Positions 20,958 to 64,000 are shown, numbered from the stretch's first letter. The stretch: 64,000 nt of DNA from Chitinophagaceae bacterium (GCA_039935335.1 JBDTKK010000099.1:659-64658); one strand, 5' to 3'. Notes: a model not told the origin generated them from the sequence alone. Numbers and translations: made by a program.

Positions 20958-21066
20958 GCGAAGATTCCGGCCTTCGTTTTATTATTTTGCAGGCTTTGGC
21001 TGTCTAGCGTCCAGCTTTTAATAAAAACATTCTTTAAAAACTACCTAACCTTCGCCCCTACGGGCT

Positions 21067-21279: not shown

Positions 21280-21354
21280 TGGTCAAATTTAGGGAAAGAA
21301 CCCGGAATGGAGTAGCAGTGTTTCTAATTGCGCCTTCCATCTCGCCCAAAAACT

Positions 21355-21381
21355 AAAAAAGCCATCCGCAAGGCGGACGGC
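21355..21381 (-). terminator. Rho-independent terminator after rplY
   Basis: On the minus strand: GCCGTCCGC-CTT-GCGGATGGC (one mismatch) followed by TTTTTT. Confidence 0.7.
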
Positions 21382-21406
21382 TTTTCAATTTCAAACAGGA
21401 AAGTTC

Positions 21407-21997
21407 TTATTTCTTTACAGCTACTTTTGCTTCTTCGGTAGCTTCTTGCTTCAACTGACGGGTGAGCACAATAGAAGCAATTGGAATACGTGGAGAGTTC
21501 ATCACTTCCATGTTTTCAGCAATCACGTCTGATACGCGCATGTTTTCGTTCAGTTCAAGGTTGGTGATATCCACCTCAATGGCTTCCTTCAAGTACTTAG
21601 GCAACGTGCGCACTTTCAAGGTTTTCATTTTGGTTTCCAGTCGTCCGCCAGCCTTCACACCCGCGGGAGAGCCTGTGTATTTAATAGGCAAACTCGCGGT
21701 TACGCGCTTGCCTTCAACTAACTCCAGGAAGTCGATGTGGGAAAGCTCGTCGGTCACTACGTCAAACTGCTTGTCCTTGAGGATGCAGCGATAAGAAGCA
21801 CCTTCTACCGTGATTTCAGCAAGCTGAAAATCAGGGGTATATACCAATGGGCGGAAAGCCAATGATGGTGCAGAGAAATGGATTTCCTTTTCGCCTCCAT
21901 AGATTACGCAGGGTACTTGTCCGTCAGCTCGGAGATGGCGCGTAGGTGTCTTACCAAATTCGCTTCTGACTTTTCCTTCAATTTTTACGCTCTTCAT
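21407..21997 (-). CDS. rplY: 50S ribosomal protein L25 / general stress protein Ctc
   Basis: N-terminal REFGKTPTRHLRADGQVPCVIYGG pattern. About 196-aa long (Ctc) form. Adjacent to prs, as in many bacteria. Confidence 0.9.
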   Translation of the reverse strand: MKSVKIEGKVRSEFGKTPTRHLRADGQVPCVIYGGEKEIHFSAPSLAFRPLVYTPDFQLAEITVEGASYRCILKDKQFDVVTDELSHIDFLELVEGKRVTASLPIKYTGSPAGVKAGGRLETKMKTLKVRTLPKYLKEAIEVDITNLELNENMRVSDVIAENMEVMNSPRIPIASIVLTRQLKQEATEEAKVAVKK

Positions 21998-35100: not shown

Positions 35101-35230
35101 ACCTTTGGCCATAGCTGTTATTGGGGGTTTTGTCATAGCGCTTCCTCTGATATTGATTGTGCTTCCCTCAATGTTGAGACTGTTTTATAAAAATAATAAA
35201 AATAAAGACCACGAAGTAGAAGCTCTATGA
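32141..35230 (+). CDS. Efflux RND transporter permease (CzcA/CusA-like; substrate class not assignable)
   Basis: 1029 aa with 12-TM RND topology and two large periplasmic loops. AcrB/CzcA-type blocks LGAIAASLGLIIDDAIVVVE and GLIMIVGIIGENSIF. Confidence 0.9.
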   Translation: MNNENGQVKNSSGGGGFFTTYKSPLTVILFILIGGGLFAYRSLKTSLFPEITFPKIKIIADAGLQPVDRMMVTVTRPLELAIKQIPSLTSIRSITSRGSCEISAYISWNANVDISEQKIEARINQIRNTLPPNVNITVEKMNPSILPVMGYSLESHDLSPIALKQLAVYTIKPYLSQVAGVSQVQIVGGKSKEYWVKLNLQKMSTLSVTPDAVSTALNQTNFIKSNGYLSDYRFLYLTVTDAALQSLNELQNVVVSNNGRRIIKLNDIADIEVQESIEYIKVFANGREGVLIGVIKQPNSNLVDVSTNMKAKIAQLKDILPKGVTLKPYYVQADFVKTVAKSVTDSLWIGLVLAIIVAIIFLRSFKASVTILIIIPVTLGATLIGLYASGYTLNIMTLGAIAASLGLIIDDAIVVVEQIHRTHEENPDDEYKNIVQKAIHFLFPAMVGSSISTIVIFLPFILMSGVAGAYFNVLTNTMIITLVCSFFVTWIGLPVVYLLFSRKKKKTAKKEKKEDVKRQGWVQWFILKPWISFIFIGILMLCIYLILPKLKTGFLPHMDEGSIVLDYSSIPGTSLAETNSELQQVGKIITSTPEVSAYSRRTGTQMGFFITEPNRGDFLIELKKNRKKTTDQVIEEIRKRIEASQPALRVDFGQVISDMLGDLMTSVQPIEIKIFGDDIQKLNKLAKQVSAIAENTKGTADVFDGIIIAGPSLSVHPDYTKIAQYGISPANFQYQVQTDLEGNVAGNIFENNRLFPVRLVYPGSRQRTVEDLKKLKIFLPDGSLKPINELATLSINPGAAEIDRENLQSMGVVSARLNNRDLGSTVSDIKSQINAKVTLPKGYTIEYGGDYAQQQKSFSELLMILIASSILVFGVILFLFQDIKAAIIILILAVLGIAGSYLALFITSTPLNVGSYTGLIMIVGIIGENSIFTFLQFKTTLKDKSVDESAVYAISTRIRPNLMTALGAITALMPLALGIGAGAQLHQPLAIAVIGGFVIALPLILIVLPSMLRLFYKNNKNKDHEVEAL

Positions 35231-35243
35231 AAATTGATAAAAA

Positions 35244-35865
35244 ATGAAGGTCTCGGTGATGGCAGAAATAAAGACTGCAATTGCTAGAAAAATTTCCATG
35301 CCGCCCGGCTATCACATCGAATACGGAGGCTCCTGTGCTGAGCAGCAAAAATCCTTTAGTGAGCTGCTGATGATTTTGTTTAGTTCTTCACTTTTGGTGT
35401 TTTGTGTCGTCTTATTTCTGTTCCGCGATTTGCGTGTAGCACTGGTGATTATACTTCTCTCTGTTTTAGGAATTTCAGGAAGTTATTTGGCGCTTTTCCT
35501 CACCCATACGCTGCTCAATGTTGGCTCCTACACAGGCTTGATTATGATAGTGGGGATTATTGCGGAGAATGCCATTTTCACCTTTCTTCAATTCCGTGAA
35601 GAACTGCGCCAACAGAGCGTTGACGAAGCATTGGTCTATTCCATTTCCACCAGATTGAGACCAAAGTTGATGACCGCTTTGGGAGCAATTATTGCATTGA
35701 TGCCTTTGGCGTTGGGAATTGGCACTGGGGGCTCAATTGCACCAACCTCTTGCCATAGCCGTCATTGGCGGATTTATCATTGCGTTGCCTCTATTGCTTG
35801 TCGTGTTGCCAACAATGTTGAGATTGATTTTTAGGAAAAATGCAGAAGCGCTTCCTAGCAATTAA
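35244..35865 (+). pseudogene. Remnant of a second RND permease: last ~200 codons only, with a frameshift at a G5 run
   Basis: Aligns to aa ~840-1015 of the upstream permease (PPGYHIEYGGSCAEQQKSFSELLMILFSS...GSYTGLIMIVGIIAENAIFTFLQF...LMTALGAIIALMPLALGIGTG). After CTGGGGGCTC the family sequence continues in another frame as AQLHQPLAIAVIGGFIIALPLLLVVLPTMLRLIFRKNAEALPSN-stop (TAA 35863-35865). Confidence 0.8.
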
Positions 35866-49064: not shown

Positions 49065-49101
49065 GAAATGAATAAGGCTTAGGCCACCAAAAGTAACGGA
49101 A

Positions 49102-50056
49102 ATGAACTTTGAAGTTTCGGGCTCTGCTCTATTCTACCGCATCTTTGTGTTTGTTTTGCCAATCTCGCTGTCTTTCAAAGCATCCATAATCCCTGAAATC
49201 CACTGAAACACCAGTTGAATTCAGTGTTCCATTCTGGATTTTCTTGGTTATTGGAGCGATCTATTTCTATGTTTTTCGCTTTGATGTGATGGACGTAGAC
49301 GCTTCGCAAGATGTCGAAATGAGCCGCGTAATGAGCCATCGCCACAATTGGCTTCAAATCTTTGACAGTGGAAGGATTACCTCGATAAACCGCCGTTCCG
49401 CTTTTAGTTATTTGCCTTGTGCTTGAAGGCTTTTGGCATCACAAATTTCGCCTAGAAACTGCCTTCAGGCTACCTTCAATTCTATTCGCCTTTCTAGCCA
49501 TTTTCTCTATTTATCGATTAGCTCTAACCCTCTATAATGCAAGCCTGGCGAAGATTACAGCATTTGTGCTCGCATCTAAGGACTCTTTCTTTGGACAAAT
49601 GATGTGCCTACAAACACGATGCTAATTAATTGTGTGATCACCCCCATTTTGTGCGTTGGAGAATGAGAGCAAAAGTGCCGATGGCATTTTGTGTCGGGAA
49701 GTACTCTCGCAATCGCTTACGGCATGATCACGAAAGGATCAATCGTTCTGTTGATTCCTGTATTTACCATAGGTTATGATCGGGTGTTTCGCGGAAAATA
49801 GTAACTGCTTTTTCTGGCTTGGCATTTGCTAGATGCAGCCATCATAGCGGCTTTCATGCTACCGATGTGCATTGGATTATACCAACAATTTGATCTCCAT
49901 CTCGAAAAAATAATTCTTGGTCAGCACAATCTTTCGGGTATAAAATTCTTTTTCTGGAGGCAAAGTTTTGGCGGTGTAACAGGAGGAAATTCTTGGAATA
50001 ATGGCGCCAGTCTTTTGTTTCGTTTGAATAGTGTGCTTTGGATGTTTCTGCCCTAG
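49102..50056 (+). pseudogene. Heavily decayed GT39/ArnT-like membrane glycosyltransferase (multiple frameshifts and stops); decay probably extends to ~50.9 kb
   Basis: Family-typical pieces are scattered over all three frames: DVDASQDVEMSRVM, YLDKPPF, AFRLPSILFAFLAIFSIYRLALTLYN, GMITKGSIVLLIPVF, QQFDLHLEKIILGQHNLSGIKFFFWRQSFGGVTGGNSWNN...LWMFLP. No ORF over 76 aa lies between 49.1 and 51.28 kb. Confidence 0.65.
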
Positions 50057-51282
50057 ATTTTCCAATTTTTAACAACAATAATCTTGAACGTAAAGTAGAT
50101 TTTTTAACAAAAATTCCGACTCGCTGAAAGACAAGAATGAGTAAGCTCTAAAGGCTTCCCTTCCGGTACTTTTCCCTTTGCTTGCCGCACTACCTGCTAC
50201 TACATTCCAAACTAGTAGCGTTTCCGTTGGTGGTAATTTTAATCGTGAAATCTCACTACGAAATGGTTGTGGCCAGGAAATTTCAATGCCCAAAGAAAGT
50301 TTGGCTAAGTTCTAATCGAAATCACTTGGAGAAAGTAGCGATAAGATGACGCTATCAAATTCGTTGCAGGTCGGAAAACATGCACTGGTGTCACTGTAAG
50401 GAAAAGACCATGTAAAAAATACAAAACCGAAATTAGAACCGCGCGGAAGTTTTTGGTACCATTCAAATTGTAATCAGCGTTTTGATTTTAGTTGCTGTAC
50501 TTTTAATTCTCATCGTTGTGTTTCCTGCGGAAAAGGCGGTTGTCTTTTTGTGGCCTTGTGCGTTTGGCATTTGGCAATCCCTTCAGTTGAAAATGTAAAT
50601 ACCGGACAAGACATATTGGATGTGGTCAACTACCATGATATTTGCAACCTACGCATATTATATATAATAATGCTCCAAAATGTAATGCTTGAACGAGGGT
50701 GGGAAAGATTTCCCAAACGGACTAGATTTCGCCCGCGAAGATCATAAGTTGGCTGATACTAGTCCGCATTTGGCTATTTGTATTTTTATGCTGGTAGAAT
50801 TATTGGGGAGAATGACGGCTATCCTGCCCAAGCAAAACTGCCTGTGCTATACTGCCGCGCTAAGCTCTTTAAAATCGCACTAAAGGAAGCTCGCGTAGGG
50901 GATTGGTTGCTTTTGCCCTGAATGCTCTATAGAGGGTCTGTAGTGACCCTACAATTCCCTAACGCCAATACACGGGGCAGCATAAAAAAACGAACTATTT
51001 TGCGTGATTGAAATAGAAATTTTGGAAATAATTTTGGCAGGATTTGACATTAGTCGGATAAATATGGAAAGCCAAACGCAGGAAAGTGAAAGTTGATCCA
51101 GCCAATGCTCTACCAAAAACTGTACAACGAGGAAAAGTACATGTAGCAACCTCGGAATAAAGAATTGGTTTCACTATTCAACGAGCCTAATGATAGGTTG
51201 TAAAGGAGTCCATTGAACAATAACATGTATTATAATCAGCTACAAACAAGATGACAATATAACATCACAAATGTATCAACTC

Positions 51283-53172
51283 CTAAATCTGAACTTGATA
51301 GGTAACGTCAATAGCACTCTGACTCTGCAATTCTGCAATCAATTCCACCTTAATTCGTTCCCATTCTTCAGGCGATACCAAACTAGAATCGCTGGGAGTG
51401 AGTTTCACGTTTATTAATGGAATCAAACCTTGATTTGGCATTGGACTTAATCCTACACCCTTCTCGACCTTCACATCTGAAACCTTATTTAGTAAATAAG
51501 CAGTGCAGAAATTCTTTATATCCATTGCAGTGACAATGCGGTTTCTGGAAAGCAATACCGACTTAAATGCAGTAAGTATCTCTGTATTTTTCAACTTATC
51601 CATTCCACCAGTACTTTGCGTCATCAATACAAGGCTTCTTTTTGCAAATGATGAGCCTTCGTACAAATCCATCTGCGAACCACTTCGGATACCGTTTCCT
51701 GCCGCTCCTGCGCAAGTCCAGTACTGCACAAAGATTGTGTCGCCGTCTTCCAATGGATTAATTAGTAGGTACGTAGGTGTAGTTTGCAAAAGATGAAGGT
51801 TCTGCTTTATTTTTTGCTCTATCAGTCCAATGTTTTGATTCAAATCTTTTATTGCAGTTGCCATAAAATCCTGTCCAAAAGCAGCAAAAGCACGGCTTTC
51901 ATCCCGCAAAAGTTCCATCAAATAATTAATATATTCAGCAGCATTTCTACTGTCAAATCGCTCCAAATCACCTACTCTCACAGTATATATTCCCTTATCT
52001 ACATCGTTGTATTGATCAAATGGGTAATACACATAATCATTCCGACCTCGTGGCCCAACAATTGTCCCCTCCACATGCTTCACAGCAAAAAACTGTTCAC
52101 TACTCAATAATGGAATGATATTAAAATAACTATTTAATCTATAATTCAGCTCGTTGAGATGTCTATTAACTACAGGAAAGCAATTTATTGATATTGACAA
52201 ATCGTCAATTACAGGTGTTGTAAATTCTGGCGGTAATTCAAGTTTTAGCCAAAGAAGTTGTTCAGTTAGTTGACCCAGCTCAGCCGCCCCCAGATATTGC
52301 TCAAATTCTGTCGGGTATTTCTTTAGATTTGCACTATCTACTTGCTGTAAAGCTTCATTTCCGCCAGCACTAATAGTAAGAAAATTACTTGAATAAATCC
52401 TATTTATTTGCCTTTCAAGCCGTCTGTTGATGTACAATTCCTCCAAGGCATCTTCAAAAGGAAGCTCATGATCTTCGTAGCTCGTTTGTGAAAGACCTTT
52501 AGTTAGGTTTACTCTGACTCCATTGAAACTACATTGAACATGCCCCAGCATAGACAAATACCGAAATTTATCCGGAATGTTTTTCAAGTCAAAGAAAATG
52601 GATAAATCCGTCAAATCTTGACCGCGTTCTGCCCGGATACCAACCCAGATTGTCTGTGCTGGAAATACACGCCCAGGTGATGGTCTTAAGTAGGTTTCCT
52701 TTTGTTGAAAATTATTTAACTTATATACATTAGAAGCTGCTGCAATAATCGCAACATCGCCGGAAATCGTCTTGAATCTACCTGCTGGGGAAAAGAAAAC
52801 GTCGAGTGTTTTATCCAAAGGACCATTCACAACCGAGGCAATTCGCTTTTGATGCAGAAATTGAGACTCCAATGCCACATACATCATCTCATCGGTCGCT
52901 GCTGCATGAATGACCGCGTGCGCTGGCCTCGGCTGGATATGTACTTCAGGAATGAGCAAATCGGCCAACCTTTCGGTCATAACCCGTTGGAGTGAGGCTA
53001 TTTCATTATCAATCCTATAAACTTCTACTGCACAGGCTTCTACCAATAGTCGAACTAATGGATCAAAGTTGTCCATATTAGTATCGTTAAGCCCCCAAAA
53101 ACGGGCAGCATTACGAAACATTCTGCTGGCTATTGCCTCCTTACTTAAATTATTACTCTCTGTATTCAGCAT
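51283..53172 (-). CDS. tssF: Type VI secretion system baseplate subunit TssF (Bacteroidota type)
   Basis: 629 aa. The N-terminal block SKEAIASRMFRNAARFWGLNDTNMDNFDPLVRLLVEACAVE is typical of T6SS-iii TssF. Lies directly after tssE. Confidence 0.8.
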   Translation of the reverse strand: MLNTESNNLSKEAIASRMFRNAARFWGLNDTNMDNFDPLVRLLVEACAVEVYRIDNEIASLQRVMTERLADLLIPEVHIQPRPAHAVIHAAATDEMMYVALESQFLHQKRIASVVNGPLDKTLDVFFSPAGRFKTISGDVAIIAAASNVYKLNNFQQKETYLRPSPGRVFPAQTIWVGIRAERGQDLTDLSIFFDLKNIPDKFRYLSMLGHVQCSFNGVRVNLTKGLSQTSYEDHELPFEDALEELYINRRLERQINRIYSSNFLTISAGGNEALQQVDSANLKKYPTEFEQYLGAAELGQLTEQLLWLKLELPPEFTTPVIDDLSISINCFPVVNRHLNELNYRLNSYFNIIPLLSSEQFFAVKHVEGTIVGPRGRNDYVYYPFDQYNDVDKGIYTVRVGDLERFDSRNAAEYINYLMELLRDESRAFAAFGQDFMATAIKDLNQNIGLIEQKIKQNLHLLQTTPTYLLINPLEDGDTIFVQYWTCAGAAGNGIRSGSQMDLYEGSSFAKRSLVLMTQSTGGMDKLKNTEILTAFKSVLLSRNRIVTAMDIKNFCTAYLLNKVSDVKVEKGVGLSPMPNQGLIPLINVKLTPSDSSLVSPEEWERIKVELIAELQSQSAIDVTYQVQI

Positions 53173-53196
53173 ATTATCAGGTGTATCATCAAAAAC

Positions 53197-53640
53197 TTAA
53201 TCAATAGAAATAGGGCTAATAAACAATTGTGGTGAAAAGGTAAATGGCTCCCCTGTTGCTTTTAAAGTCCCTTTTACGTTAATGGTCAGTTTCTTTTTGA
53301 TACTCCGTACTCTGGTTTGGGGGTTAAAATAAGGTTCCTCCGTAATAACTGTATCCACACTAATCTTATCTAACCTCCGTTCATACTTATTAAGCGTTTT
53401 GATTATGGACTTATTTACTTCTTCTTGCCAAATCAATGGATTGGTAATCAACTCAAAATCTCGTTCCCAAATTTCACAGCCATATTCAGGGTCAAAACGA
53501 TGTTCCTGATATTTGGATGTGATAATAAGAAAAATGTTCTGCGCTATGGATGTCCCTAGGTTTACCGCAGGAAGCTCTTGATTTCGCTCCATGAGCAAAT
53601 CAAAACGAAAGGGCATCTGATATAACTTCGCTGTGTTCAT
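53197..53640 (-). CDS. tssE: Type VI secretion baseplate subunit TssE (GPW/gp25 family)
   Basis: gp25-like core SIAQNIFLIITSKYQEHRFDPEYGCEIWERDFE. About 147 aa from MNTAKL. Lies between vgrG and tssF. Confidence 0.75.
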   Translation of the reverse strand: MNTAKLYQMPFRFDLLMERNQELPAVNLGTSIAQNIFLIITSKYQEHRFDPEYGCEIWERDFELITNPLIWQEEVNKSIIKTLNKYERRLDKISVDTVITEEPYFNPQTRVRSIKKKLTINVKGTLKATGEPFTFSPQLFISPISID

Positions 53641-53693
53641 AAGATGTGTCGCATAAAACTTATAAGCTGCTATCGTTGCCAACAATATGCAGC

Positions 53694-55550
53694 CTAATTA
53701 ATCATCACCATCGCTCCTTTAATGGTATTAATACCACTAGCTTCTACATTTACTAAAGCACCTTTCAGTTTCGCTGTTCCAGAGCCAGAAATTTCAGTCT
53801 GTACAGATTCAATTTTTACTGAAGTTCCTCCCTTGGCCTCGAGGCCAGTACTTGCTTCAATTTTGATATCTGGAGCCTTCATTTCAATCTTCGTATTTGC
53901 ACTCAGTGATATACTGTCGGTAGCCTCAATAGTAATTTTCTCAGATTTTATGCTGATTGTTTTATCACCTTGAACTTCAATCGACTTTCCTGATTTTACG
54001 ACAATAGTCTCCTTAGAGTTTACCTCAATCGCCTTCGAAGAATAAATCTTAATCGTTCCGTCGGAATTCTTAAGATTAATGGAAATATAATTCGTCTTAT
54101 CCGTTTGAATGTTTATTTCCTGCTCTTTATCATCATCTTTATCGGTAAAAGTAATGATGTTTCCGCTTCTGGTACTGATTGACTTAATCTGATTCTTATC
54201 ATTGGGTGATGAGTCTATCTGTTTTCCATTGGGCAAACTGCCTAACACAAAAGGTCTTTCAGGATCATTCTGGGAAAACCCAACCATCACCATTTCTCCA
54301 ACCTCGGGTGTAAAAAAGTGACCGCGAGTCTTCTTACCATCTTTGTACGTGCCACCATGCGGGGTCATCACCCTAATATAAGGCGTTGTATCTGAATCCT
54401 TTTGCCACAATAGTTGAACCTTCACTTTCCCTAATTTGTCGGGATCTGTATTGTCGGTAACTATTCCCATCTGCGCATCTGCAATTCGTTTTTCAATATG
54501 GGCATTTGGAACAACAGTAATTCCATTGGGAATCGCTTCAAAGTTATTAGTATAGTTGCCCAGTCCATCGGTTGTATGATTAACAGATATAACTGTAAAC
54601 TTTCCATAATCAGTAGTGTCTGCCATAATCGCCACTGTAGCACCCAGGCTCACTGATGGAGAATCAGAACTTGCTTCAACAGCCACAAAATTTCCGGCAG
54701 TAGTGGATTTGATTACTTTAACCGATTCGTCAAGCTCTTTGGCTTCCAAAAATTTCCTCGCACTTAGTGTATTGGCTTTAGCCTTAAATATTTGCTTTGA
54801 AGTGTTTAAAGCAAATTTTCCATTCGCATCCAAGCCTGCAACATCCTGCCCAGACGATGCTACACGAAGTTGTTTGTCTTCTTTAGACAAGTAGCCAACA
54901 TGTTCAAATTCAACAGGTCCGAGCTTCACTTGCAAGTCCAATTCCGATAGGTCATTGGGATATTGAAGTGAAATATTTACAGCCTGACTCGGCTTCCCAA
55001 AATTCAGCTTTGTACCGTCATAAAAAAAATGCTCTCCATACTCCGCTGCTAACCGCCGTAAGAATGAAAAGTCACTCTCATGATATTGAACGCAATAAGG
55101 AATGGCCGATTTCTTTACGGGATTTACGCTAAGCGACAAATCATTAGAAGGCACATCCTTTGTAGCCCCTTTCACAACTTGTGAAAGTGTGCTTTTGAGA
55201 TAAGAAGCATTCGACTCGCCAGTTTCCAATAGGATTGTTGGGCTATAGCCACTAAAAATCAAATCTCCAGGCGAATCCAAGGTATTTGAAATGCGAATGT
55301 CCGTAACAATGCCTTTAAACACAGTTTCTTGCTTCGTTTTTTCGAAGTTGTTGAAAGCGATATTAATCGCTTTGCCTAGATAATCTTTTGATTTATCGAG
55401 GGTGACGGCTCCTTTAGCCTCCAAAACATCATAATTGAAGTGCAACTCAAAATAATGATGTGCATTATATTGCTGTCGCAACGACAATTGAGAAAATGGG
55501 GTGATTTTCTTGCCGTTAATCGTAATATCTACGCTAATCTGCTGCGCCAC
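53694..55550 (-). CDS. vgrG: Type VI secretion spike protein VgrG (TssI)
   Basis: gp27-like N-terminus (ITINGKKITPFSQLSLRQQYNAHHYFELHF), a gp5 OB-fold (GIVTDNTDPDKLGKVKVQLLW...YIRVMTPHGG), and a C-terminal beta-helix of repeated x-I-x-I/V-x-x strands. The GTG start at 55550 fits family N-termini. ATG alternatives lie at 55592 and 55610. Confidence 0.85.
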   Translation of the reverse strand: MAQQISVDITINGKKITPFSQLSLRQQYNAHHYFELHFNYDVLEAKGAVTLDKSKDYLGKAINIAFNNFEKTKQETVFKGIVTDIRISNTLDSPGDLIFSGYSPTILLETGESNASYLKSTLSQVVKGATKDVPSNDLSLSVNPVKKSAIPYCVQYHESDFSFLRRLAAEYGEHFFYDGTKLNFGKPSQAVNISLQYPNDLSELDLQVKLGPVEFEHVGYLSKEDKQLRVASSGQDVAGLDANGKFALNTSKQIFKAKANTLSARKFLEAKELDESVKVIKSTTAGNFVAVEASSDSPSVSLGATVAIMADTTDYGKFTVISVNHTTDGLGNYTNNFEAIPNGITVVPNAHIEKRIADAQMGIVTDNTDPDKLGKVKVQLLWQKDSDTTPYIRVMTPHGGTYKDGKKTRGHFFTPEVGEMVMVGFSQNDPERPFVLGSLPNGKQIDSSPNDKNQIKSISTRSGNIITFTDKDDDKEQEINIQTDKTNYISINLKNSDGTIKIYSSKAIEVNSKETIVVKSGKSIEVQGDKTISIKSEKITIEATDSISLSANTKIEMKAPDIKIEASTGLEAKGGTSVKIESVQTEISGSGTAKLKGALVNVEASGINTIKGAMVMIN

Positions 55551-55636
55551 GGTAAATAGTTTAGTGATAAAGAATAGGCCGCAAGACCCCATGAAGAGAC
55601 CTTGCGGCAACCAATTCCTGCTGACAAGCTAAAGCC

Positions 55637-56041
55637 TTAGGCTTTGTTGTCAGGCCACAGATTCGTGTGCTTGGCAGCATCACCCATAGAGATTTCACGA
55701 GCGGAAATCGTCATCTGGATAGCCATAGCTTCGCTGCTATTTGCCTGCGCAGATTCTGTGTAGTTTGTGATGAAGCCATCAACAAACTTCAGCGTTTTCA
55801 TGACTCCGTCGGCGGAACCCTGATCATAGGTGATGTCACCTGTTTGCGCTGTATGCTGCTTGTTCAGCATAATTTCTAGTAGCGTCGTATCTGCATACGA
55901 TTCTACTGCCAAGTGGATCTCACCACCATAAACCCCTGAAGACGGACGTCCTTTAGGATCTACTGATCGGTTGAATGAGAATGTTGTGCTGAGCACATCG
56001 TACTTCTTTCCCCCTAGACTGAGGGTCATTTTGTAAGCCAT
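55637..56041 (-). CDS. hcp: Type VI secretion tube protein Hcp/TssD (Bacteroidota type), copy 1
   Basis: MAYKMTLSLGGKKYDVLSTTFSFNRSVDPKGRPSSGVYGGEIH matches the T6SS-iii TssD signature. 134 aa. Confidence 0.88.
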   Translation of the reverse strand: MAYKMTLSLGGKKYDVLSTTFSFNRSVDPKGRPSSGVYGGEIHLAVESYADTTLLEIMLNKQHTAQTGDITYDQGSADGVMKTLKFVDGFITNYTESAQANSSEAMAIQMTISAREISMGDAAKHTNLWPDNKA

Positions 56042-56103
56042 AGCTGGTTTGGTTTGGATGATTAAAAAAAAAGAAAAGTTTGCGTAATAGAATTTGCGTA
56101 ATA

Positions 56104-56145
56104 GAGTTAGAGTAGGACTCCTGTATTAGAATCCTACTCTAACTC
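56104..56145 (-). other. Perfect 14-bp-stem hairpin between the two hcp copies
   Basis: GAGTTAGAGTAGGA (56104-56117) pairs with TCCTACTCTAACTC (56132-56145) across a 14-nt loop. There is no clear U-tract, so it may be an attenuator, an RNA processing site or a weak terminator. Confidence 0.55.
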
Positions 56146-56193
56146 ATTGATGCCTCTTTGACGACAAAGTAGAGCAGACTAACTAGTCTTTGC

Positions 56194-56598
56194 CTAAGCT
56201 TTGTTGTCTGGCCACAAGTTCGTGAGCTTGGCAGCATCACCCACAGAGATTTCACGAGCGGAAATCGTCATGGCAATTGTCATAGCGTCTCCGCTATTTG
56301 CTTGTGCAGACTCACCATAGCTCGTGATGAAGCCATCAACAAACTTCAATGTTTTCATGACACCATCTGCGGAGCCCTGATCGTAGGTGATGTCACCTGT
56401 TTGCGCTGTATGCTGCTTATTCAGCATAATTTCTAGTAGCGTCGTATCTGCATACGATTCTACTACAATGTGAATCTCACCACCATAAACCCCTGAAGAC
56501 GGACGTCCTTTAGGATCTACTGATCGGTTGAATGAGAATGTTGTGCTGAGCACATCGTACTTCTTTCCCCCTAGACTGAGGGTCATTTTGTAAGCCAT
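56194..56598 (-). CDS. hcp: Type VI secretion tube protein Hcp/TssD, copy 2
   Basis: 124 of 134 residues are identical to copy 1. The first ~125 coding nt and the proximal leader are essentially identical. Confidence 0.88.
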   Translation of the reverse strand: MAYKMTLSLGGKKYDVLSTTFSFNRSVDPKGRPSSGVYGGEIHIVVESYADTTLLEIMLNKQHTAQTGDITYDQGSADGVMKTLKFVDGFITSYGESAQANSGDAMTIAMTISAREISVGDAAKLTNLWPDNKA

Positions 56599-56658
56599 GT
56601 CTGGTTTGGTTTAGATGATTAAAAAAAAGAAAAAAAATAATTTCGTAAATAGATAGTA

Positions 56659-58041
56659 TTAAGCATTTTCCGTCTTGGTATCCCATTCGGCCCCATCATC
56701 GCCCTTGTGTCCGTCCAGCTTCAGCATAAAGCTCTTGGCAGGGAAATAAGGAGTGATGTTGATATCCAAGAAGATACGGTCTTTCTGATTTTCATCGCGC
56801 TCAAAGCGCAATACGCGGAATTTTTCGATAAGCTTGTCTGCACCTTTGATGCTGTCCAAGAATTTCACAATCTGCTGACGCAAATCTTGCTCCGTAGCTG
56901 ATGTCCAGTTTTCAAATGCCCGACGGTTCAAGAAATCTATCAATACTTTGTTGATATAGTCAAATACGCGGACAACAGAGTAAGTTTGAAGGCCAATATT
57001 GTCGCCGTTGAACAATGTCTTGGAAGAAAATGCCATTACCTTGCCATACTCGCTTACCATTGGGATTAGTCCGGCACGATCCATCGCAGATATTTCTGAC
57101 TTCTTCAAATCAAACCGAATCCCTTCTACCTCGTTCATACCACCATGCTTCTTACCAGCGGTCACTTGAGACATTAGCGTATAATAAAGCTTACCAGCCA
57201 ATGCTGAGGATGGGGGTACGCGTAAATCATCCTCTTCGTCAACTTCCTCGTTCTTAGCACGGCCAACTATATAGTTCGCAGCCATCATAACGTTAGAGCG
57301 GTGAAGTTCGCCGCCAGTGAGGTTGGCCTCAACAAACATATCCAAAGTATCATCTGGATTATCAATGTCCATGAAGTCAGTAACAAGCATGGTCTTCGTC
57401 GCAAACGCTAATTTCGCCCATTTTTCAACTACGGCATTGCTGCCCAAATATCCTGGGACACAAAGAATTGAATAATTGTTCCGCAAATCCAATCTATCGT
57501 AATTCTGCTTCAATTCACCAGCTACATACTCAATGAATTTCGGTGCGTCCAAGTCTTTAATTTGGTCAGGCCCTGCGTTCACAATGGTTACGTTCTTAAG
57601 TTTCTCTGATTCAGTATTCTTATAGAAAAGATTCAAAGAGCGGTAAGACACTTCCAATTCATGGCTAGCCTCTACTGCCTTCTTCAAGTTTTTCTTCAAA
57701 AGCGCAGCAGCTTCTTCAGATTTCTGTTGGCTCACTTCTGCCATCTTGCTAATGTCACTGCTAGATTGAAGAAGATCTAACCACAATTGCATTTTCTTCT
57801 TCAATTCGGCACGCTCTTTCTTCTTGTTGCTATCGCTCAAAAAGATATTCTTCCGTGCCTTACGCTCGGGGTTGAGGCTTTGAACGCCATCGATTGCAGA
57901 TTCAAGAAAGTCAAAGCTGCCAAATTTAGCAAGCTTTGCCAAGCTCGCGTCAATCGACTCCGAGGGAGCGGTACTGGCTTCCTGGGTTTTGACCGCTAGT
58001 TCCTGACTGTCTTCTGCCTGTTGCATTGATGCTTCTGCCAT
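56659..58041 (-). CDS. tssC: Type VI secretion contractile sheath large subunit TssC
   Basis: 460 aa, downstream of tssB. The sheath-family C-terminal region LQTYSVVRVFDYINKVLIDFLNRRAFENW...ITPYFPAKSF is typical of Bacteroidota TssC. Confidence 0.82.
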   Translation of the reverse strand: MAEASMQQAEDSQELAVKTQEASTAPSESIDASLAKLAKFGSFDFLESAIDGVQSLNPERKARKNIFLSDSNKKKERAELKKKMQLWLDLLQSSSDISKMAEVSQQKSEEAAALLKKNLKKAVEASHELEVSYRSLNLFYKNTESEKLKNVTIVNAGPDQIKDLDAPKFIEYVAGELKQNYDRLDLRNNYSILCVPGYLGSNAVVEKWAKLAFATKTMLVTDFMDIDNPDDTLDMFVEANLTGGELHRSNVMMAANYIVGRAKNEEVDEEDDLRVPPSSALAGKLYYTLMSQVTAGKKHGGMNEVEGIRFDLKKSEISAMDRAGLIPMVSEYGKVMAFSSKTLFNGDNIGLQTYSVVRVFDYINKVLIDFLNRRAFENWTSATEQDLRQQIVKFLDSIKGADKLIEKFRVLRFERDENQKDRIFLDINITPYFPAKSFMLKLDGHKGDDGAEWDTKTENA

Positions 58042-58084
58042 AGTTTATATTATTTCTGTTGTGTAATGTTTTTTAAGGTAAAGA

Positions 58085-58531
58085 TTATTTCTGTTGATCC
58101 AATTCGTTAATGAGACTTTGAAGGGCATTCATAAATGCCGCTTTTGTTTCTGGGTTTTCAATGACATTACGGACGAGCTTATTTGTTTTCAATTGCTTCA
58201 TCAGTTTTTGATATTCATCCTTTTCATTATTCAAGCCTTGAAGTAAGGGACTTTGAGACACCATGCTTGATGCCTTAAAATCACCCACACCGTTAAAATG
58301 AATTTCTTCAGATTGTGTGCTGCCATCTGGCTTGTCAAATTCTACTTCCACTTTCGGCTTGTAGTGATCAAATACTTCCTCTACAGTTTTGAGGTCATAT
58401 ACTGCTTCTGGACGAATCGGATCATCTGCAGTAAGTTTTTGTACGAACAACGAACGGTTCATAGAAATACTCGCCATGCCTTCAGAGGCATCCATCTTGA
58501 CGGCGTTCCCGCCTACTTCATAATCAAACAT
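58085..58531 (-). CDS. tssB: Type VI secretion contractile sheath small subunit TssB
   Basis: 148 aa, immediately upstream of tssC. VipA-like layout with a C-terminal helix. Confidence 0.7.
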   Translation of the reverse strand: MFDYEVGGNAVKMDASEGMASISMNRSLFVQKLTADDPIRPEAVYDLKTVEEVFDHYKPKVEVEFDKPDGSTQSEEIHFNGVGDFKASSMVSQSPLLQGLNNEKDEYQKLMKQLKTNKLVRNVIENPETKAAFMNALQSLINELDQQK

Positions 58532-58643
58532 TGGTACGGTTTTTGATAGTTTTTATTTATTGATTTCCTTTTTTGTCGCTACTTTTTAGAAAAGTATTGC
58601 CGTTTTGCAATGCCAAAGTACAACTTTTTCCTACAAAACAAAA

Positions 58644-61133
58644 TTATTTTTTGACGGAGTAGTCAACTTCTTGTTCTTCATTCAGTTTCACCATTATTGT
58701 ATCGCCCTTTCCTACTCCTCCAGCCACAATAAGTTTGGAAATTGGCCTCCGTAAATGAGTTCGAATCACTCCAGAAATTTGCCTTGCACCATACTTTGGC
58801 GTGAACCCTGTAAGGGCAATTTTTTGCTTGGCCTCTTCGGTTATTTCCAATAAAATTCCTTGCTTGTCGAGGCTTTCCAAAAGGCTTTTCATCTGAATCT
58901 CCAAAATCTTAACAACATTGGATTCACTGATGGGCGCGAAGGGAATAATCTCGGTGAGGCGAGCCAAAAACTCGGGGCGGAAATACTTCGTCATAATCTC
59001 CATCAACTGGTTGGACTTGGGCATAATATTCTGGCCAAATTGCTCTACAATCCACTCGCTGCCTATGTTTGAGGTGAAGATGATTAACGAGTTCGAGAAG
59101 TCTCCTTCCTTACCCAATCGATCGCTCATTTTCCCTTCGTCAAGTATCTGCAGGAAGATGTCAAACACTGATGGATGAGCCTTTTCAATTTCATCGAAAA
59201 GCACGACAGAATAAGGCTGCTGGCGGATTTTATTCACCAATACTCCACCCTCTTCGTAACCCACATATCCTGGAGGTGCACCGTACAACAATGCTGCAGA
59301 ATGCTCTTCTTTAAACTCCGACATGTCGAAGCGAATCATCGCTTTTTCATCGTTGAACAAAAAGTCTGCGATTGCTTTTGCGACTTCCGTTTTACCAGTA
59401 CCTGTAGGCCCAAGCAAGAAGAAGGAGCCTATTGGCTGCCCGGGTTTATTAAGGCCGCTACGCGACTCTACAATAGCATCTGCAAGCGCTTTCACGGCGT
59501 GGTCTTGCCCCACAACTCTACGCTTAATGATACTTTCCATTTCCTGAAGCTTTTGTTGCTCCTTCGCTTGGATTTTACCCATCGGGATGCCCGTTTTGAA
59601 AGCAACGATTGCCGCCAATTCGGCTTTAGTTACTTCGTCTTTTATTTCAGCCGCAAATTCTTTCAAACTCGTCAAAGTATGACCCAGCGCAGTTTCTATG
59701 TCTGTAGCGGTCTCCAATTTGCCAATGTCTGTAGGGTCAAGCAGTTTGCCAAACAATACAGGGCTAAGGCTATTTTTCAAAGATTGGTAGAACCATTTGT
59801 ACTCCGAGATTCTTTCCACATCATCAAGCTCTGCGTCTTTCACTAAAGCTTCAAATTGTGTGGTGAGCGTATCCAGTTCAGGAATGGAAGTTTCGTTCAT
59901 CATTTTGATGGCTGCCATGGTACGATCCAACAAATCCACCGCAGAGTCTGGCAGGCGACGATCTTTTACATAACGCTTTGCCAATCTTGCACATTCTGCA
60001 AGTACGTCTTTTTCAATTTTCAACTTATGATGGGCTTCAAATGCAGATGCCAATTTTTGCAACATTTTCGCGGCTGTGGACATGTCCGGCTCTTCCACTC
60101 GAATCACCTCAAACCTGCGGCTGAAAGCCTGTTCAGGCTCTATAAGCTTGCGATATTCATCCAAAGTAGTTGCACCAATCACTGTAATTTCGCCGCGTGC
60201 CAGTTCGGGTTTCAAAAGGTTTGCAGCACCGCCGGCACTACCTTTTGGATCCAAAAGTGTATGGATTTCATCGATGAAAAGAATGGCTTTGTCAAACTGC
60301 TTTATTTCCTTAATAATGCTCTTCAATCGCTCTTCTACTTCGCCTTTGTAAGATGCTCCGGCAAAAAGAGATCCTAAATCGAGCTCGTACAAAAAGGCTT
60401 CCTTGAGCGCATCGGGCACTTTTCCTTCTACAATACTTAGCGCGAAACCGTCTATTAGCGCGGTTTTGCCCACGCCAGGATCACCTGTTATTATCACATT
60501 AGGCTTGGTGCGGCGGCCAAGTACTTCCAACATCATTCTCGTTTCCTTGTCGCGGCCAACAATCGGGTCAATTTTCCCTTCTTTAGCCAGCGCAATCTTG
60601 TCGATGCAATATTTCAGCAAAGCCACGTTGGCCTTGCCTTGCGAGGCTGTGCCTTCTACTCCGTCTATAGCCTGAGTGGTACCTAGAGTTTGGCTAAGCG
60701 AACTATCATTGAGATAGAGGTCTAGAATCTCCTTTTCCCGAAGGGGAAAGGACTTCAATTCTTCAGAACTAAAACCAACATTTGGCTTTACCAATGCTGT
60801 AAGCGCGCAAATTGGCGAAACATCATTCAAGCCTAGCTTTAAGCGAATGTTATCCGCTTCTTCAAGGGCATTTGCAGTCTTCTCATCTGCTGTGATGTTT
60901 TCTACGCTTTTGCCACTTTTAGGCAGCTCATCGATGCGTATTTCGGCCCATTCCGTCATGTAACCAATATCTTTCCCTAAGGAATTGAGGAAGGGATGCA
61001 ATCCAGCATCTTTGTGCAATAGTCCGCGCAACAAATGTGGAAGCGAAAATTGCTCGTTTTTGTTTTCTCTTGCAAAGGAAATGGCTACCTGAATAGCTGT
61101 TTTCAGGGATTCACTAAAGGAAAGCGTTGTCAT
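58644..61133 (-). CDS. clpV: Type VI secretion AAA+ ATPase ClpV (TssH)
   Basis: Clp N-domain plus two AAA+ modules: Walker A GDPGVGKTA and Walker B ILFIDEIH in the first, Walker A GPTGTGKTE and Walker B VVLFDEIEKAH in the second. Lies inside the T6SS cluster. Confidence 0.9.
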   Translation of the reverse strand: MTTLSFSESLKTAIQVAISFARENKNEQFSLPHLLRGLLHKDAGLHPFLNSLGKDIGYMTEWAEIRIDELPKSGKSVENITADEKTANALEEADNIRLKLGLNDVSPICALTALVKPNVGFSSEELKSFPLREKEILDLYLNDSSLSQTLGTTQAIDGVEGTASQGKANVALLKYCIDKIALAKEGKIDPIVGRDKETRMMLEVLGRRTKPNVIITGDPGVGKTALIDGFALSIVEGKVPDALKEAFLYELDLGSLFAGASYKGEVEERLKSIIKEIKQFDKAILFIDEIHTLLDPKGSAGGAANLLKPELARGEITVIGATTLDEYRKLIEPEQAFSRRFEVIRVEEPDMSTAAKMLQKLASAFEAHHKLKIEKDVLAECARLAKRYVKDRRLPDSAVDLLDRTMAAIKMMNETSIPELDTLTTQFEALVKDAELDDVERISEYKWFYQSLKNSLSPVLFGKLLDPTDIGKLETATDIETALGHTLTSLKEFAAEIKDEVTKAELAAIVAFKTGIPMGKIQAKEQQKLQEMESIIKRRVVGQDHAVKALADAIVESRSGLNKPGQPIGSFFLLGPTGTGKTEVAKAIADFLFNDEKAMIRFDMSEFKEEHSAALLYGAPPGYVGYEEGGVLVNKIRQQPYSVVLFDEIEKAHPSVFDIFLQILDEGKMSDRLGKEGDFSNSLIIFTSNIGSEWIVEQFGQNIMPKSNQLMEIMTKYFRPEFLARLTEIIPFAPISESNVVKILEIQMKSLLESLDKQGILLEITEEAKQKIALTGFTPKYGARQISGVIRTHLRRPISKLIVAGGVGKGDTIMVKLNEEQEVDYSVKK

Positions 61134-61220
61134 AGTTTCTAAAAAAAATAAAAGTTGTTTTCGTAAAAATACTTTTTATTCTCGGAGAAACAAATGCTGA
61201 TGGAATGATAAAGGCAAAAG

Positions 61221-61248
61221 ATTAATGGTTAATGATTAATGGTTAATG
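61221..61248. repeat. Perfect tandem duplication of the 14-mer ATTAATGGTTAATG, ~90-115 nt upstream of the clpV start
   Basis: 61221-61234 and 61235-61248 are identical. Each copy contains the palindrome ATTAAT. Confidence 0.85.
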
Positions 61249-61280
61249 GTGTGGGGACATTCCGTTGTGGATACATTGAA

Positions 61281-61459
61281 AAGGCAAAGGGCGAAATGCA
61301 AAAAGCAACGGACAATGGGCAAAGGGCAAAGGGCAAAAGACAATGGGCAAAAGGCAATGGGCAAAAAGCAACGGACAAAGGGCAAAGGGTAATGGGCAAC
61401 GGGCAAAGGGTAACGGGCAAAAGGCAATGGGCAAAAGGCAATAGGCAAAAAGGGTAGGC
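61281..61459. repeat. About 27 tandem copies of a 6-7-nt unit GGGCAAn (TTGCCCn on the transcribed minus strand), including (G3N4)5G3 tracts
   Basis: Read directly. For example 61380-61417 = GGGcaaaGGGtaatGGGcaacGGGcaaaGGGtaacGGG, and 61317-61347 = GGGcaaaGGGcaaaGGGcaaaagacaatGGG. A higher-order ~64-bp repeat is also present (GCAAAAAGCAACGGACAAnGGGCAAAGGG occurs twice). Confidence 0.9.
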
Positions 61460-61735
61460 TCATTCCCGTACGGTTGCCTTGAAAAGTTAAAAGAACTCCC
61501 CTGTTGTCTTTTTAGTTTGGGTGATTTGGAGTCAAAAAGCATTCAATCACGCTGCAGATATGAAAGCATTCGCTGGAAGGAAATCCCTTCAATTTTCAAT
61601 CCATTTCCCGAAGAAAATCTCTACACTTTTGCACCATCTCTTTGAAAAAAAACTCTGAATTGAGCCAATGCTTTTTTTCTAGCTTCCTACTTTTTTTTGA
61701 AGATTTCAGTAGCGGTCTAAATGCTTTCGAGCTTT

Positions 61736-61772
61736 TTAAAAAGAAAATCCCAGCCACTTGCGCGACTGGGAT
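61736..61772 (-). terminator. Candidate intrinsic terminator after tssO
   Basis: On the minus strand: ATCCCAG-12 nt-CTGGGAT followed by TTTTCTTTTTAA. Lies ~35 nt after the tssO stop. Confidence 0.5.
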
Positions 61773-61806
61773 CCACCTAAAAATAATTTTTCCTAAAAGC
61801 CCAGAG

Positions 61807-62316
61807 CTATTGCGTAGGAGGCATAGGCATCGGAGCTGCGCCCATACCCATCATGGGATTGCTTTGCACCGCTTTGAGCTTCGCGTCCATATCTTGAAGC
61901 TTGAGCAAGGCATCCTTCAATTTGGCTTGTGCATCCACCAATTGTGTGACGTGTGTAAAATGCTTCTCGTAGCTGGCGCGAATAGTAGGTACGATGGCAA
62001 TTGAAGTATCCATCCTGCTCAAATCGGAAATACCATCTGCAATTTTCTGCTTGAGCAAAACTGGATTTTCAACGGTTGCAGAGGCTAGTAAATTGATGTT
62101 GGAATCAATTTCAGCCATTTTCTTCAAAATGATTTTTTGCGTGTGCTCGAAGTTGGAATAGGCCACTAATTTGTCGGACTCGCCCTGACTTATTTCCTCG
62201 GGCACTTTGTAGTAGGAAAAGAATATCAACGCGGCGGGCACCATGGCGAGCGCGAAAAAGATAAACACGAATTGCCAGAGCGATTTGCTACGTTCCTTGC
62301 TATTGATTGGTTTCAT
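61807..62316 (-). CDS. tssO: Bacteroidota-specific T6SS transmembrane protein TssO
   Basis: 169 aa with a single N-terminal TM (LWQFVFIFFALAMVPAALIFFSYY) followed by a coiled-coil. Size, topology and position next to tssK fit TssO of T6SS-iii. Confidence 0.55.
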   Translation of the reverse strand: MKPINSKERSKSLWQFVFIFFALAMVPAALIFFSYYKVPEEISQGESDKLVAYSNFEHTQKIILKKMAEIDSNINLLASATVENPVLLKQKIADGISDLSRMDTSIAIVPTIRASYEKHFTHVTQLVDAQAKLKDALLKLQDMDAKLKAVQSNPMMGMGAAPMPMPPTQ

Positions 62317-62342
62317 AAATGGTCTGTGATATATTATAGGGA

Positions 62343-63506
62343 TTAATCAAAAATACTAAACTTGCCTTTGCCTTTTTCCTTCGGTGTTTCCATGGTACGA
62401 CCGCCAAAGTCAAACTTCTCATTCTTCTGTCCGATGAGCTTGAGGTCTTTCAATTTTTCTAGCAACTCGCACCATACTTTGAGGAATTGCAGGAGCGGTT
62501 GGTAAAAGCCATAAATATCTTCATGGTTATAATCTGCATTGATAACTAGGGCAAGCATTTCTTCAAACTTACCTGGGCTAATCTCGTTCCAATAGCTAAA
62601 ATACTGGAGTAATTCTTCCTTGTCTTTGATGGAGAGCAAGGTCATGTTTACATTGATATGGCTGGCCAGCTGCACAACCGTATTGGCCATGTACACCGGA
62701 CTTTGCTGCCGATACATCATCCGAAACATGAAGAACTCAGATGCGATATGCCGAACTGTGTGTTCGCAAACACTCCTTAGATTCTGCGCTAAAGCGGCAT
62801 TCTGCCCACCTTCCACCACTTTTCGTACCACTTCGCTACTGTATTCTTGTATTTGGTTGAGGCGTTCCGCAATGGTATTAAAAATCTGCTTGGTACCCGG
62901 ATGTGCGCCCACTAATGCACACGGCGGAATGTAATTATTATCACGCACCAGTTCACCATTTTTTAGGATGAACTTGGCCACTGGCAAATTATTTGCGCCG
63001 ATAGAGCCTGTATTGATATCTTCTTCGGCCACGAGGCTAAGGCGATAGCTGGAAATACTATGTTCGTTGCGTGGTGGATATTCTTCGGCGGATGCAGCGC
63101 CAAAAGGCTCGCGGTTGTATGGATTCACAGATATTACTGCATAAAATCCCGTAGCCCCAGATTTTGCGGCATTAAATTCTTCACCGGATTGAGCGGTATT
63201 ATCACTCACCAATTCCGGATGAATGCCAGGGATAATTTCAATTCTACAGCCCCCGGAAGTGATGGCGCGGCAATAGCTTACGGTCACTTTAAATTGCCGG
63301 GTTTGGTTGGCTGCTGCGTTGCAGTCGAGGGAGCTTTTTTCACCGGCTATGGGTTGCAGTAATCCGTAGGAAAATGCATTGAGCGCCACAGCATGGCTGT
63401 CGCGCAACTGATCAATCAGTGCATTCTCACTATCAATAAAGTGCTGACGGTTTATTTTCATTCCGTCCACCCAATTGGTGAGGTGATATTGCAGCTTAGG
63501 TAACAT
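62343..63506 (-). CDS. tssK: Type VI secretion baseplate subunit TssK
   Basis: N-terminal NWVDGMKINRQHFIDSE matches the TssK W-x-E/D-G-M-x-L/I-x-P/R-Q-HF signature. 387 aa. Confidence 0.7.
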   Translation of the reverse strand: MLPKLQYHLTNWVDGMKINRQHFIDSENALIDQLRDSHAVALNAFSYGLLQPIAGEKSSLDCNAAANQTRQFKVTVSYCRAITSGGCRIEIIPGIHPELVSDNTAQSGEEFNAAKSGATGFYAVISVNPYNREPFGAASAEEYPPRNEHSISSYRLSLVAEEDINTGSIGANNLPVAKFILKNGELVRDNNYIPPCALVGAHPGTKQIFNTIAERLNQIQEYSSEVVRKVVEGGQNAALAQNLRSVCEHTVRHIASEFFMFRMMYRQQSPVYMANTVVQLASHINVNMTLLSIKDKEELLQYFSYWNEISPGKFEEMLALVINADYNHEDIYGFYQPLLQFLKVWCELLEKLKDLKLIGQKNEKFDFGGRTMETPKEKGKGKFSIFD

Positions 63507-63543
63507 GCGTTGTTAAGAGGTCGGTTTGTTAGTTTTAAGAAGT

Positions 63544-64000
63544 TTAATAGTCATTTTCAGGCTCGGCGATGATGCCTACACGCTTTGCCATAATGATGTT
63601 CTTTTCAATGATTTTATTATCTGCGATGGTCAATTCCGGATCAATGAATTTAGTGCCACCCAAAAAGGAAGGTTTTACATAAAAAATCCAGCCCATTGCC
63701 GTTTGATCATCATTCATGAACTGGATGGGGTCGTTTTCGAACTTGTAATTATAGTTATCGATAAAGGAACGAAACCAGTCACCAAATTTCATGGCTACAG
63801 GGGCACGAAGCTTGGTATTGGTCACGCGTGGATCATTGATGGACTTGGAATATTCCAGCTCCAGCATAAAGATGGTAGTCGTGTCAATTTTATCATAATC
63901 CACTTCATCTGCATGGAGCGGAAGATACCAAACCTTATTGATTTCCTGTGGAATCTCGCGGTAGGCACCGAAGGCCGATCGCAGAAATTGCGGAAGCACA
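63544..64000 (-). CDS. T6SS-cluster protein, C-terminal ~150 aa only (gene continues beyond the window); identity unknown
   Basis: The frame is open to the window edge. It is co-oriented with tssK and lies 37 nt upstream of it. No family motif recognised in the visible part. Confidence 0.5.
   Translation of the reverse strand, partial: VLPQFLRSAFGAYREIPQEINKVWYLPLHADEVDYDKIDTTTIFMLELEYSKSINDPRVTNTKLRAPVAMKFGDWFRSFIDNYNYKFENDPIQFMNDDQTAMGWIFYVKPSFLGGTKFIDPELTIADNKIIEKNIIMAKRVGIIAEPENDY

Follow-up and report, generated by a model that had tools for sequence, protein, structure and literature searches.

Gene content and class of the cluster

We analyzed a gene cluster at positions 51283-64000 of a 64,000-nucleotide stretch of DNA from a Chitinophagaceae bacterium (GCA_039935335.1, JBDTKK010000099.1:659-64658). 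The whole stretch is referred to below as the window, and all coordinates are positions in it. An earlier note, made from the sequence alone, had proposed a type VI secretion system (T6SS) of the class T6SS-iii, which was reportedly described for the Bacteroidota by Russell in 2014, with Flavobacterium johnsoniae and the Bacteroides fragilis GA3 locus as examples. We listed the open reading frames (ORFs) and then scanned those of the window with Pfam and NCBIfam profiles. Eleven co-oriented ORFs with short spacers are present on the minus strand, in the order that the note had read: tssN (cut by the window end), tssK, tssO, clpV, tssB, tssC, hcp, hcp, vgrG, tssE and tssF. Ten of the eleven could be assigned by the profile scans, and the eleventh, a partial unknown protein in the note, was identified as TssN via its full-length version on an overlapping contig (L001, see below). 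The genes are as follows.

63544..64000, minus strand: 3' part of tssN, residues ~136-286 of 286 (the C-terminal 151 residues); full-length protein from L001
62343..63506, minus strand: tssK, baseplate subunit, 387 aa; PF05936 26.2 bits (cutoff 23.4), TIGR03353 E 8e-13
61807..62316, minus strand: tssO, single-pass membrane-complex protein, 169 aa; PF17561 E 1e-13
58644..61133, minus strand: clpV/tssH, double AAA+ unfoldase, 829 aa; AAA_2 E 3.5e-57, AAA_lid_9, ClpB_D2-small
58085..58531, minus strand: tssB, small sheath subunit, 148 aa; VipA E 4.5e-4, below cutoff
56659..58041, minus strand: tssC, large sheath subunit, 460 aa; PF17541 725 bits, E 3e-218
56194..56598, minus strand: hcp copy 1, inner-tube protein, 134 aa; PF17642 E 2e-33
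55637..56041, minus strand: hcp copy 2, tandem duplicate, 134 aa; PF17642 E ~1e-34
53694..55550 (ORF to 55610), minus strand: vgrG/tssI, spike, 618 aa; Phage_base_V E 3e-19, Phage_GPD E 2.5e-10, TIGR03361 E 6e-28
53197..53640 (ORF to 53685), minus strand: tssE, gp25-like baseplate wedge, 147 aa; PF04965 34.5 bits
51283..53172, minus strand: tssF, baseplate wedge protein, 629 aa, the last gene of the cluster; PF05947 27.3 bits (cutoff 25)

The profile searches return Bacteroidota-type TssC, Hcp, TssO and TssN, in support of the T6SS-iii identity and of the TssO-like protein put forward in the note. Hcp also matches two Bacteroidales TssD structures in the PDB, 9qwl and 7yw0 (E 3e-27), and PDB sequence searches with TssC, TssF and TssK gave no match. 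Walker A and Walker B motifs are visible in both rings of the ClpV translation, which scores 652 bits with TIGR03345, under the equivalog cutoff of that model, and 727 bits with the ClpB model. We compared the cluster with 96 loci (numbered with the prefix L), collected as contigs with homologues of TssN and of two protein families described below, U284 and U393, by a scan of reference genomes with a TssN alignment and by a metagenome scan with TssF. A 148-aa tssB orthologue lies directly upstream of tssC in all T6SS-iii loci compared. TssK is 81-95% identical to the orthologues adjoining tssN in L002-L005, and TssF is 83% identical to its 630-aa orthologue in L088 and 30-33% identical to Pedobacter/Chitinophaga proteins located between tssE and tssG. 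VgrG has no toxin extension. The most likely start codons, as judged from the orthologues in L003, are the ATG at 53640 for tssE and the GTG at 55550 for vgrG, the latter pointed to also by a 13-bp hairpin in the hcp-vgrG spacer.

The two hcp genes (window 55637-56598) form a tandem duplication of a 444-nt unit with 90.8% identity between the copies, and relatives have one hcp copy only. The copies differ by 10 amino-acid and 20 synonymous codon changes, and the 10 differing residues cluster at positions 44-45 and 93-125. Between the two copies lies an inverted repeat, GAGTTAGAGTAGGA...TCCTACTCTAACTC.

The cluster, together with the contig that extends it, thus encodes a TssB/TssC sheath, Hcp and VgrG, a TssE/F/G/K baseplate, ClpV, and TssN and TssO, in a Bacteroidota host. 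TssJ, TssL and TssM are absent, as the note had it: no such family is found among the ~45 scanned window ORFs or on L001, and TssA, with TssJLM a feature of the T6SS-i class, was not detected in the scanned window ORFs either. TssP, TssQ and TssR, which also belong to T6SS-iii, were not found in the window or in the related loci of the same clade that were searched. The window carries Bacteroidota markers, namely a type IX secretion system (T9SS) Por_Secre_tail protein and Bacteroidota-typical DUFs, and the nearest loci by TssN match come from Chitinophagaceae and Bacteroidetes metagenome-assembled genomes. The remaining window genes are housekeeping genes (PBP2/RodA, GcpE, phosphoribosyl pyrophosphate synthetase, an RND pump, a two-component system, an IcmF-like mutase, a DEAD helicase and FtsX), and the cluster is therefore chromosomal and lies on no evident mobile element. 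These findings together indicate that the cluster is very probably the core of a chromosomal T6SS-iii in an uncultured Chitinophagaceae-like bacterium. The locus is a further member of T6SS-iii: the class itself is known, and the compact architecture of its clade is undescribed.

The tssN end and the membrane complex

The T6SS-iii membrane complex is formed by five proteins (TssN, TssQ, TssO, TssP, TssR), with TssN binding TssK (Bongiovanni 2024, PMC10781749), a composition restated in a 2026 review (PMC13584744). The earlier note had seen no membrane-complex genes in view. However, the window holds tssO complete and tssN in part, and both encode components of this complex; membrane-complex genes are therefore present.

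An exact-protein look-up of TssK retrieved L001, a ~5-kb read-assembly contig that overlaps the window end over 1680 nt with 0 mismatches and adds 3391 nt. Here, tssN is completed; upstream of it lie tssG and, farther upstream, the gene of a secreted TPR protein (at least 648 aa). The extension past 64 kb that the note had proposed thus yielded the full tssN and a tssG gene, but no effector gene or other cargo in the 3.4 kb added. The full-length TssN (286 aa) matches PF17555 with E 2.5e-65. It is predicted to cross the inner membrane several times and to have a cytoplasmic domain, and is the component of the membrane complex that docks TssK. The 316-aa TssG shows weak matches to PF06996 and TIGR03347 (E 3e-4 to 4e-3), both in the same C-terminal profile region. 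We call it a putative tssG on these two matches and on the gene order tssG-tssN-tssK, which is reported to be systematic in T6SS-iii (PMC10781749). A contig scan with the TPR protein found no relative. No contig with an exact tssF match is on record, so that an extension was possible only at the tssN end.

The tssO gene is the sole TssO/TssQ-like gene in the cluster. In profile-profile comparison, the focal TssO profile matches the Pedobacter TssO family with 94% and the TssQ family with 91%. Homology is also detectable between the TssO and TssQ families (L023 5429-6437 and profiles of the families), which reach 91-99.7% with the focal TssO in HHalign. The TssO-like gene of the focal clade scores higher against the second copy, in the TssQ position, of L053-type loci than against the Pedobacter TssO.

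A collinear array shared by uncultured relatives

We defined the focal clade by tblastn of the cluster proteins against the loci collected up to then and by ORF maps of later loci. It comprises L002-L019 and L087-L094 (~25 loci), with TssN proteins 49-91% identical. All clade loci come from metagenomes, and those with a name are mostly labeled Chitinophagaceae bacterium. A single collinear array is found across the clade, in the order SLT (370 aa)-U393-U284-TPR (713)-tssG-tssN-tssK-tssO-clpV-tssB-tssC-hcp-vgrG-tssE-tssF. This compact 15-gene architecture has so far been seen only in metagenome-derived genomes. The window genes have the same lengths as their clade orthologues, and their products are well conserved relative to L003, with identities of 92% for ClpV, 91% for TssC, 91% for Hcp, 89% for TssB, 89% for TssE, 83% for TssF, 81% for TssK, 78% for TssO and 74% for VgrG. 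Equal gene lengths and these identities argue for an intact system under selection. U284 and U393 orthologues were not recovered from the focal sample, the nearest contigs coming from other samples.

A very large gene (1400-1900 aa) in divergent orientation is located upstream of the array in L003 (1-3153) and at the upstream ends of L007, L009, L011-L014 and L016-L019. The L003 protein, encoded just upstream of the SLT gene, carries PKD_5 and a T9SS sorting signal (Por_Secre_tail). In another lineage (L020, L022, L026, L053, L077) a homologous large protein is encoded within the T6SS cluster, after tssO/tssQ.

Search for membrane-complex genes beyond tssN and tssO

In Pedobacter/Mucilaginibacter-type loci, a four-gene block beside clpV encodes TssO (173 aa) and TssQ-, TssP- and TssR-like proteins of 161, 328 and 792 aa, respectively, the TssP-like one with an N-terminal helix. 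BLAST families of TssP, TssQ and TssR are present in 47-51 Pedobacter, Mucilaginibacter and other loci. Hidden Markov models of TssP, TssQ and TssR, each built from 40 Pedobacter-type sequences, found no match in the six-frame translation of the window, where only tssO was hit, nor in any locus of the focal clade.

The clade loci encode four other conserved proteins upstream of tssG (SLT, U393, U284 and TPR), all with signal-peptide-like N-termini. When compared with the TssP, TssQ and TssR families, these reach profile-profile probabilities of <10%, versus 91-99.7% for the TssO control. The 370-aa SLT protein contains an SLT domain, which identifies it as a lytic transglycosylase. The U284 family (105 clusters) has no Pfam domain, and its predicted structure (pLDDT, the predicted local distance difference test, 90) has no fold match in the PDB. 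For the U393 family (29 clusters), the predicted structure consists of an Ig-like sandwich, a disordered linker and an NTF2-like domain.

One explanation for this gene content is that the system is a canonical T6SS-iii split over several loci. In this case, tssP, tssQ and tssR could be located at a second locus, PAAR and effector-immunity pairs would likewise be encoded elsewhere, and SLT, U393, U284 and TPR would be accessory factors. We regard this as a strong contender that falls just short of an even chance. T6SS-iii genes frequently occur dispersed across two to five loci (PMC10781749), and a split after tssO is seen in the closest relatives, L002, L005 and L087. The core genes are conserved and intact and thus speak for a functional system that needs a spike tip and cargo. 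However, the other 15 genes are strictly collinear in the clade, no tssP, tssQ or tssR is found within ~10 kb on either side in ~25 loci, and in other lineages these genes lie directly beside tssO.

Alternatively, the clade may build the periplasm-spanning part of the system without TssP, TssQ and TssR, having kept TssN and one TssO-like protein and using SLT, U393, U284 and TPR as replacements. This is a tentative proposal, somewhat more doubtful than a split system. We found neither a tssP-less architecture nor an SLT protein encoded at the locus described for T6SS-iii in the open-access literature. If true, it would represent a second solution for the Bacteroidota T6SS membrane complex, and if the four proteins do replace TssP, TssQ and TssR, the envelope-spanning part of a contractile secretion system would be swappable in evolution.

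A missing cargo module

As the note had pointed out, vgrG and tssE have no PAAR, effector or immunity gene between them. It had placed the tssE start 9 nt past the vgrG stop; with the ATG at 53640 the gap comes to 53 nt instead of 8-9 nt, and a gene would still not fit into it. The suggestion that cargo might be encoded upstream of 64 kb is not borne out. There, L001 has tssN, tssG and the TPR gene, to which relatives add two unknown secreted proteins and the SLT transglycosylase. The relatives' cargo is found on the opposite side of the cluster, directly downstream of tssF. In five of the six relatives with sequence past tssF, a PAAR gene (Pfam E 4e-25) is located 6 nt to 4.2 kb downstream of it. 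In individual relatives, the PAAR gene has company from genes for a DUF4123 adaptor (E 1e-31), a LysM protein of 513 aa and a Tle1-like phospholipase (E 3e-22). In the L088 cargo region (17837-18802, 20855-21887), an IS1595-family transposase gene is located downstream of the effectors; the ORF after it begins MKTILGLDLGTNSIGWALV and resembles the N terminus of Cas9, a candidate resemblance only.

In the window, the corresponding site is occupied by the following stretch.

49065..51282, no strand assigned: ORF-poor stretch of 2.2 kb between tssF and ftsX, with no ORF >76 aa

Neither in 49065-51282 nor in the rest of the window do the relatives' PAAR, DUF4123 and effector proteins leave a tblastn trace; we conclude that the local cargo module is absent rather than just diverged. 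The window also has no match to DUF4280-type PAAR-like seeds taken from loci of Dysgonomonas, Chitinophaga and Pedobacter. The system would have to load cargo encoded elsewhere in the genome, or may have lost its local arsenal.

We considered 49065-51282 as a decayed cargo region and rejected this candidate, since the stretch shows no similarity to the relatives' PAAR, adaptor and effector proteins. It may be a heavily decayed gene or a deletion scar. The only family signal comes from a plus-strand fragment (49419-49625) with a weak PMT_2/ArnT-type match over 50 residues (E 2.7e-4 alone, 0.018 in frame context), and the stretch might represent a decayed PMT_2-type glycosyltransferase gene, a reading that is tentative because it depends on a weak match of this single fragment.

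The absence of cargo genes that five of six relatives carry after tssF, and the apparently decayed, ORF-poor 2.2 kb found there instead, would also fit a disarmed system, in which the cargo module was deleted and the cluster is heading for loss or retains a residual role; defective secretion systems may occur in genomes (PMC10781749). We consider this unlikely. All twelve genes seen, the eleven in the window and tssG, have their full length. A relative whose TssN is only 76% identical still shows 89-92% identity in ClpV, TssC and TssB, and hcp has been duplicated and kept, with 20 synonymous versus 10 non-synonymous codon changes. This conservation and the hcp codon changes are signs of continued purifying selection. 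In either case, the locus is a natural example in which to ask how distant loci could arm a conserved firing apparatus, or what becomes of the apparatus once its arsenal is gone.

That the cluster encodes a phage tail or an extracellular contractile injection system, the alternative raised in the earlier note (with a tape-measure gene, or without ClpV), is hardly conceivable: matches to Phage_GPD, Phage_base_V, GPW_gp25 and Phage_sheath_1C do occur, VgrG, gp25 and sheath sharing ancestry with phage tails, but this reading is excluded by ClpV, TssK, TssN and TssO, to which the Bacteroidota-type Hcp, the housekeeping flanks and the lack of any tape-measure, capsid, terminase or Afp-type match in the scans can be added.

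Spacers, hairpins and probable transcription units

The spacer between tssO and clpV and the spacer between the second hcp copy and vgrG contain the following elements.

61134..61806, minus strand: tssO-clpV spacer, 673 nt (69 nt in L003), unique to this genome
61745..61774, minus strand: terminator-like hairpin of 13 pairs followed by a T-run, 33 nt past the tssO stop
61279..61450, minus strand: degenerate 7-nt tandem repeat CCCnTTG, ~24 copies, within the spacer, ~150-315 nt upstream of the clpV start
55578..55608, minus strand: strong, terminator-like, 13-bp GC-rich hairpin between hcp2 and vgrG, possible attenuator

DNA homology to relatives ends at ~61805 and resumes at ~61140, at the borders of the tssO-clpV spacer, and the three closest relatives have unrelated genes after tssO. 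The junction is therefore a point of rearrangement and a likely operon boundary, and the cluster is probably organized in two transcription units that are split at this spacer. The CCCnTTG array accounts for 15 of 16 matches of the pattern in the window, versus 0.12 expected by chance; it occurs in none of the 96 related loci, and the window contains no other array. The predicted RNA fold of the spacer is not unusual (z = 0.14), and a sigma-70 promoter scan performed no better than on shuffled sequence.

Other observations in the window

A 196-aa ORF (35244-35834) directly follows the 1029-aa RND pump gene (32141-35230). Its only match is to the C-terminal portion of the AcrB profile (positions 827-988), and it looks like a partial duplicate or a remnant of a pump gene. 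Between 16000 and 18200, local G+C peaks at 0.50 (versus ~0.43), coinciding with a minus-strand ORF of 494 aa (16680-18164) without a Pfam match; the neighboring ORFs 19066-20016 and 20337-20957 have no family match. Rfam and tRNA scans of the window were empty.

Proposed mechanism

From established T6SS biology, TssN would anchor the TssEFGK baseplate at the inner membrane. TssBC would polymerize around the Hcp tube, which would be capped by VgrG, and contraction would drive tube and spike, with bound effectors, into neighboring cells. ClpV would then disassemble the contracted sheath and recycle its subunits. TssP, TssQ and TssR may be encoded elsewhere, or their functions may be taken over by the Sec-exported proteins that are specific to the clade and encoded upstream of tssG, among which the SLT lytic transglycosylase would open the peptidoglycan. 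Expression may proceed from two transcription units, split at tssO-clpV, with attenuation at the hairpin after hcp.

Several points weigh against reading the locus as a T6SS-iii core organized in this way. TssB, TssF, TssK, TssE and TssG were identified by weak profile scores together with synteny. TssP is reported to be nearly ubiquitous in T6SS-iii, while TssQ and TssR are unidentifiable in 23-31% of systems (PMC10781749), yet TssP was not found within ~10 kb of any clade locus; the system could therefore be incomplete. The genes upstream of the TPR gene are known solely from relatives. The Bacteroidota -7 promoter motif TAnnTTTG is found in no spacer, so that the two-operon model rests on the hairpin and on the split loci of relatives. 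The taxon placement is based solely on the best TssN matches, which in reference genomes reach <=65% identity.

Comparison with known systems

We compared the cluster to other T6SS loci. Like the T6SS-iii loci of F. johnsoniae and B. fragilis GA3 (Coyne 2016, PMC4714493; PMC10781749), it combines Bacteroidota-type TssB/C, Hcp, VgrG, TssE/F/G/K and ClpV and lacks TssJLM. TssN is again encoded between tssG and tssK, TssO is present, and the pairs tssB-C, tssE-F and hcp-vgrG are kept. In contrast to these systems, there is no recognizable tssP, tssQ or tssR in or near the locus, SLT, U393, U284 and TPR exported-protein genes are found upstream of tssG in the clade, and all core genes form one collinear array. 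Variable effector regions within the cluster, minor Hcp genes and an integrative and conjugative element context are all lacking.

The Pedobacter, Mucilaginibacter and Chitinophaga loci (L023-L085) have TssN proteins that are 32-37% identical to the one studied here, and their baseplate and sheath proteins are homologous. However, they carry the tssO-tssQ-tssP-tssR block beside clpV, and their gene order and strands differ. Two of them, L073 and L085, have two unknown-family genes directly after vgrG, possibly PAAR-like or effector genes, which are absent here.

A parallel may further be drawn to proteobacterial T6SS-i systems with peptidoglycan helpers, in which a cell-wall-cleaving enzyme is tied to an envelope-spanning assembly, such as MltE in enteroaggregative Escherichia coli, whose T6SS requires this enzyme, and TagX in Acinetobacter (PMC13584744). 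The analogy is partial, as MltE is encoded outside the T6SS locus and TagX is an endopeptidase. A role of the SLT protein in T6SS assembly would fit its gene position at the head of the array, its signal peptide and its SLT domain.

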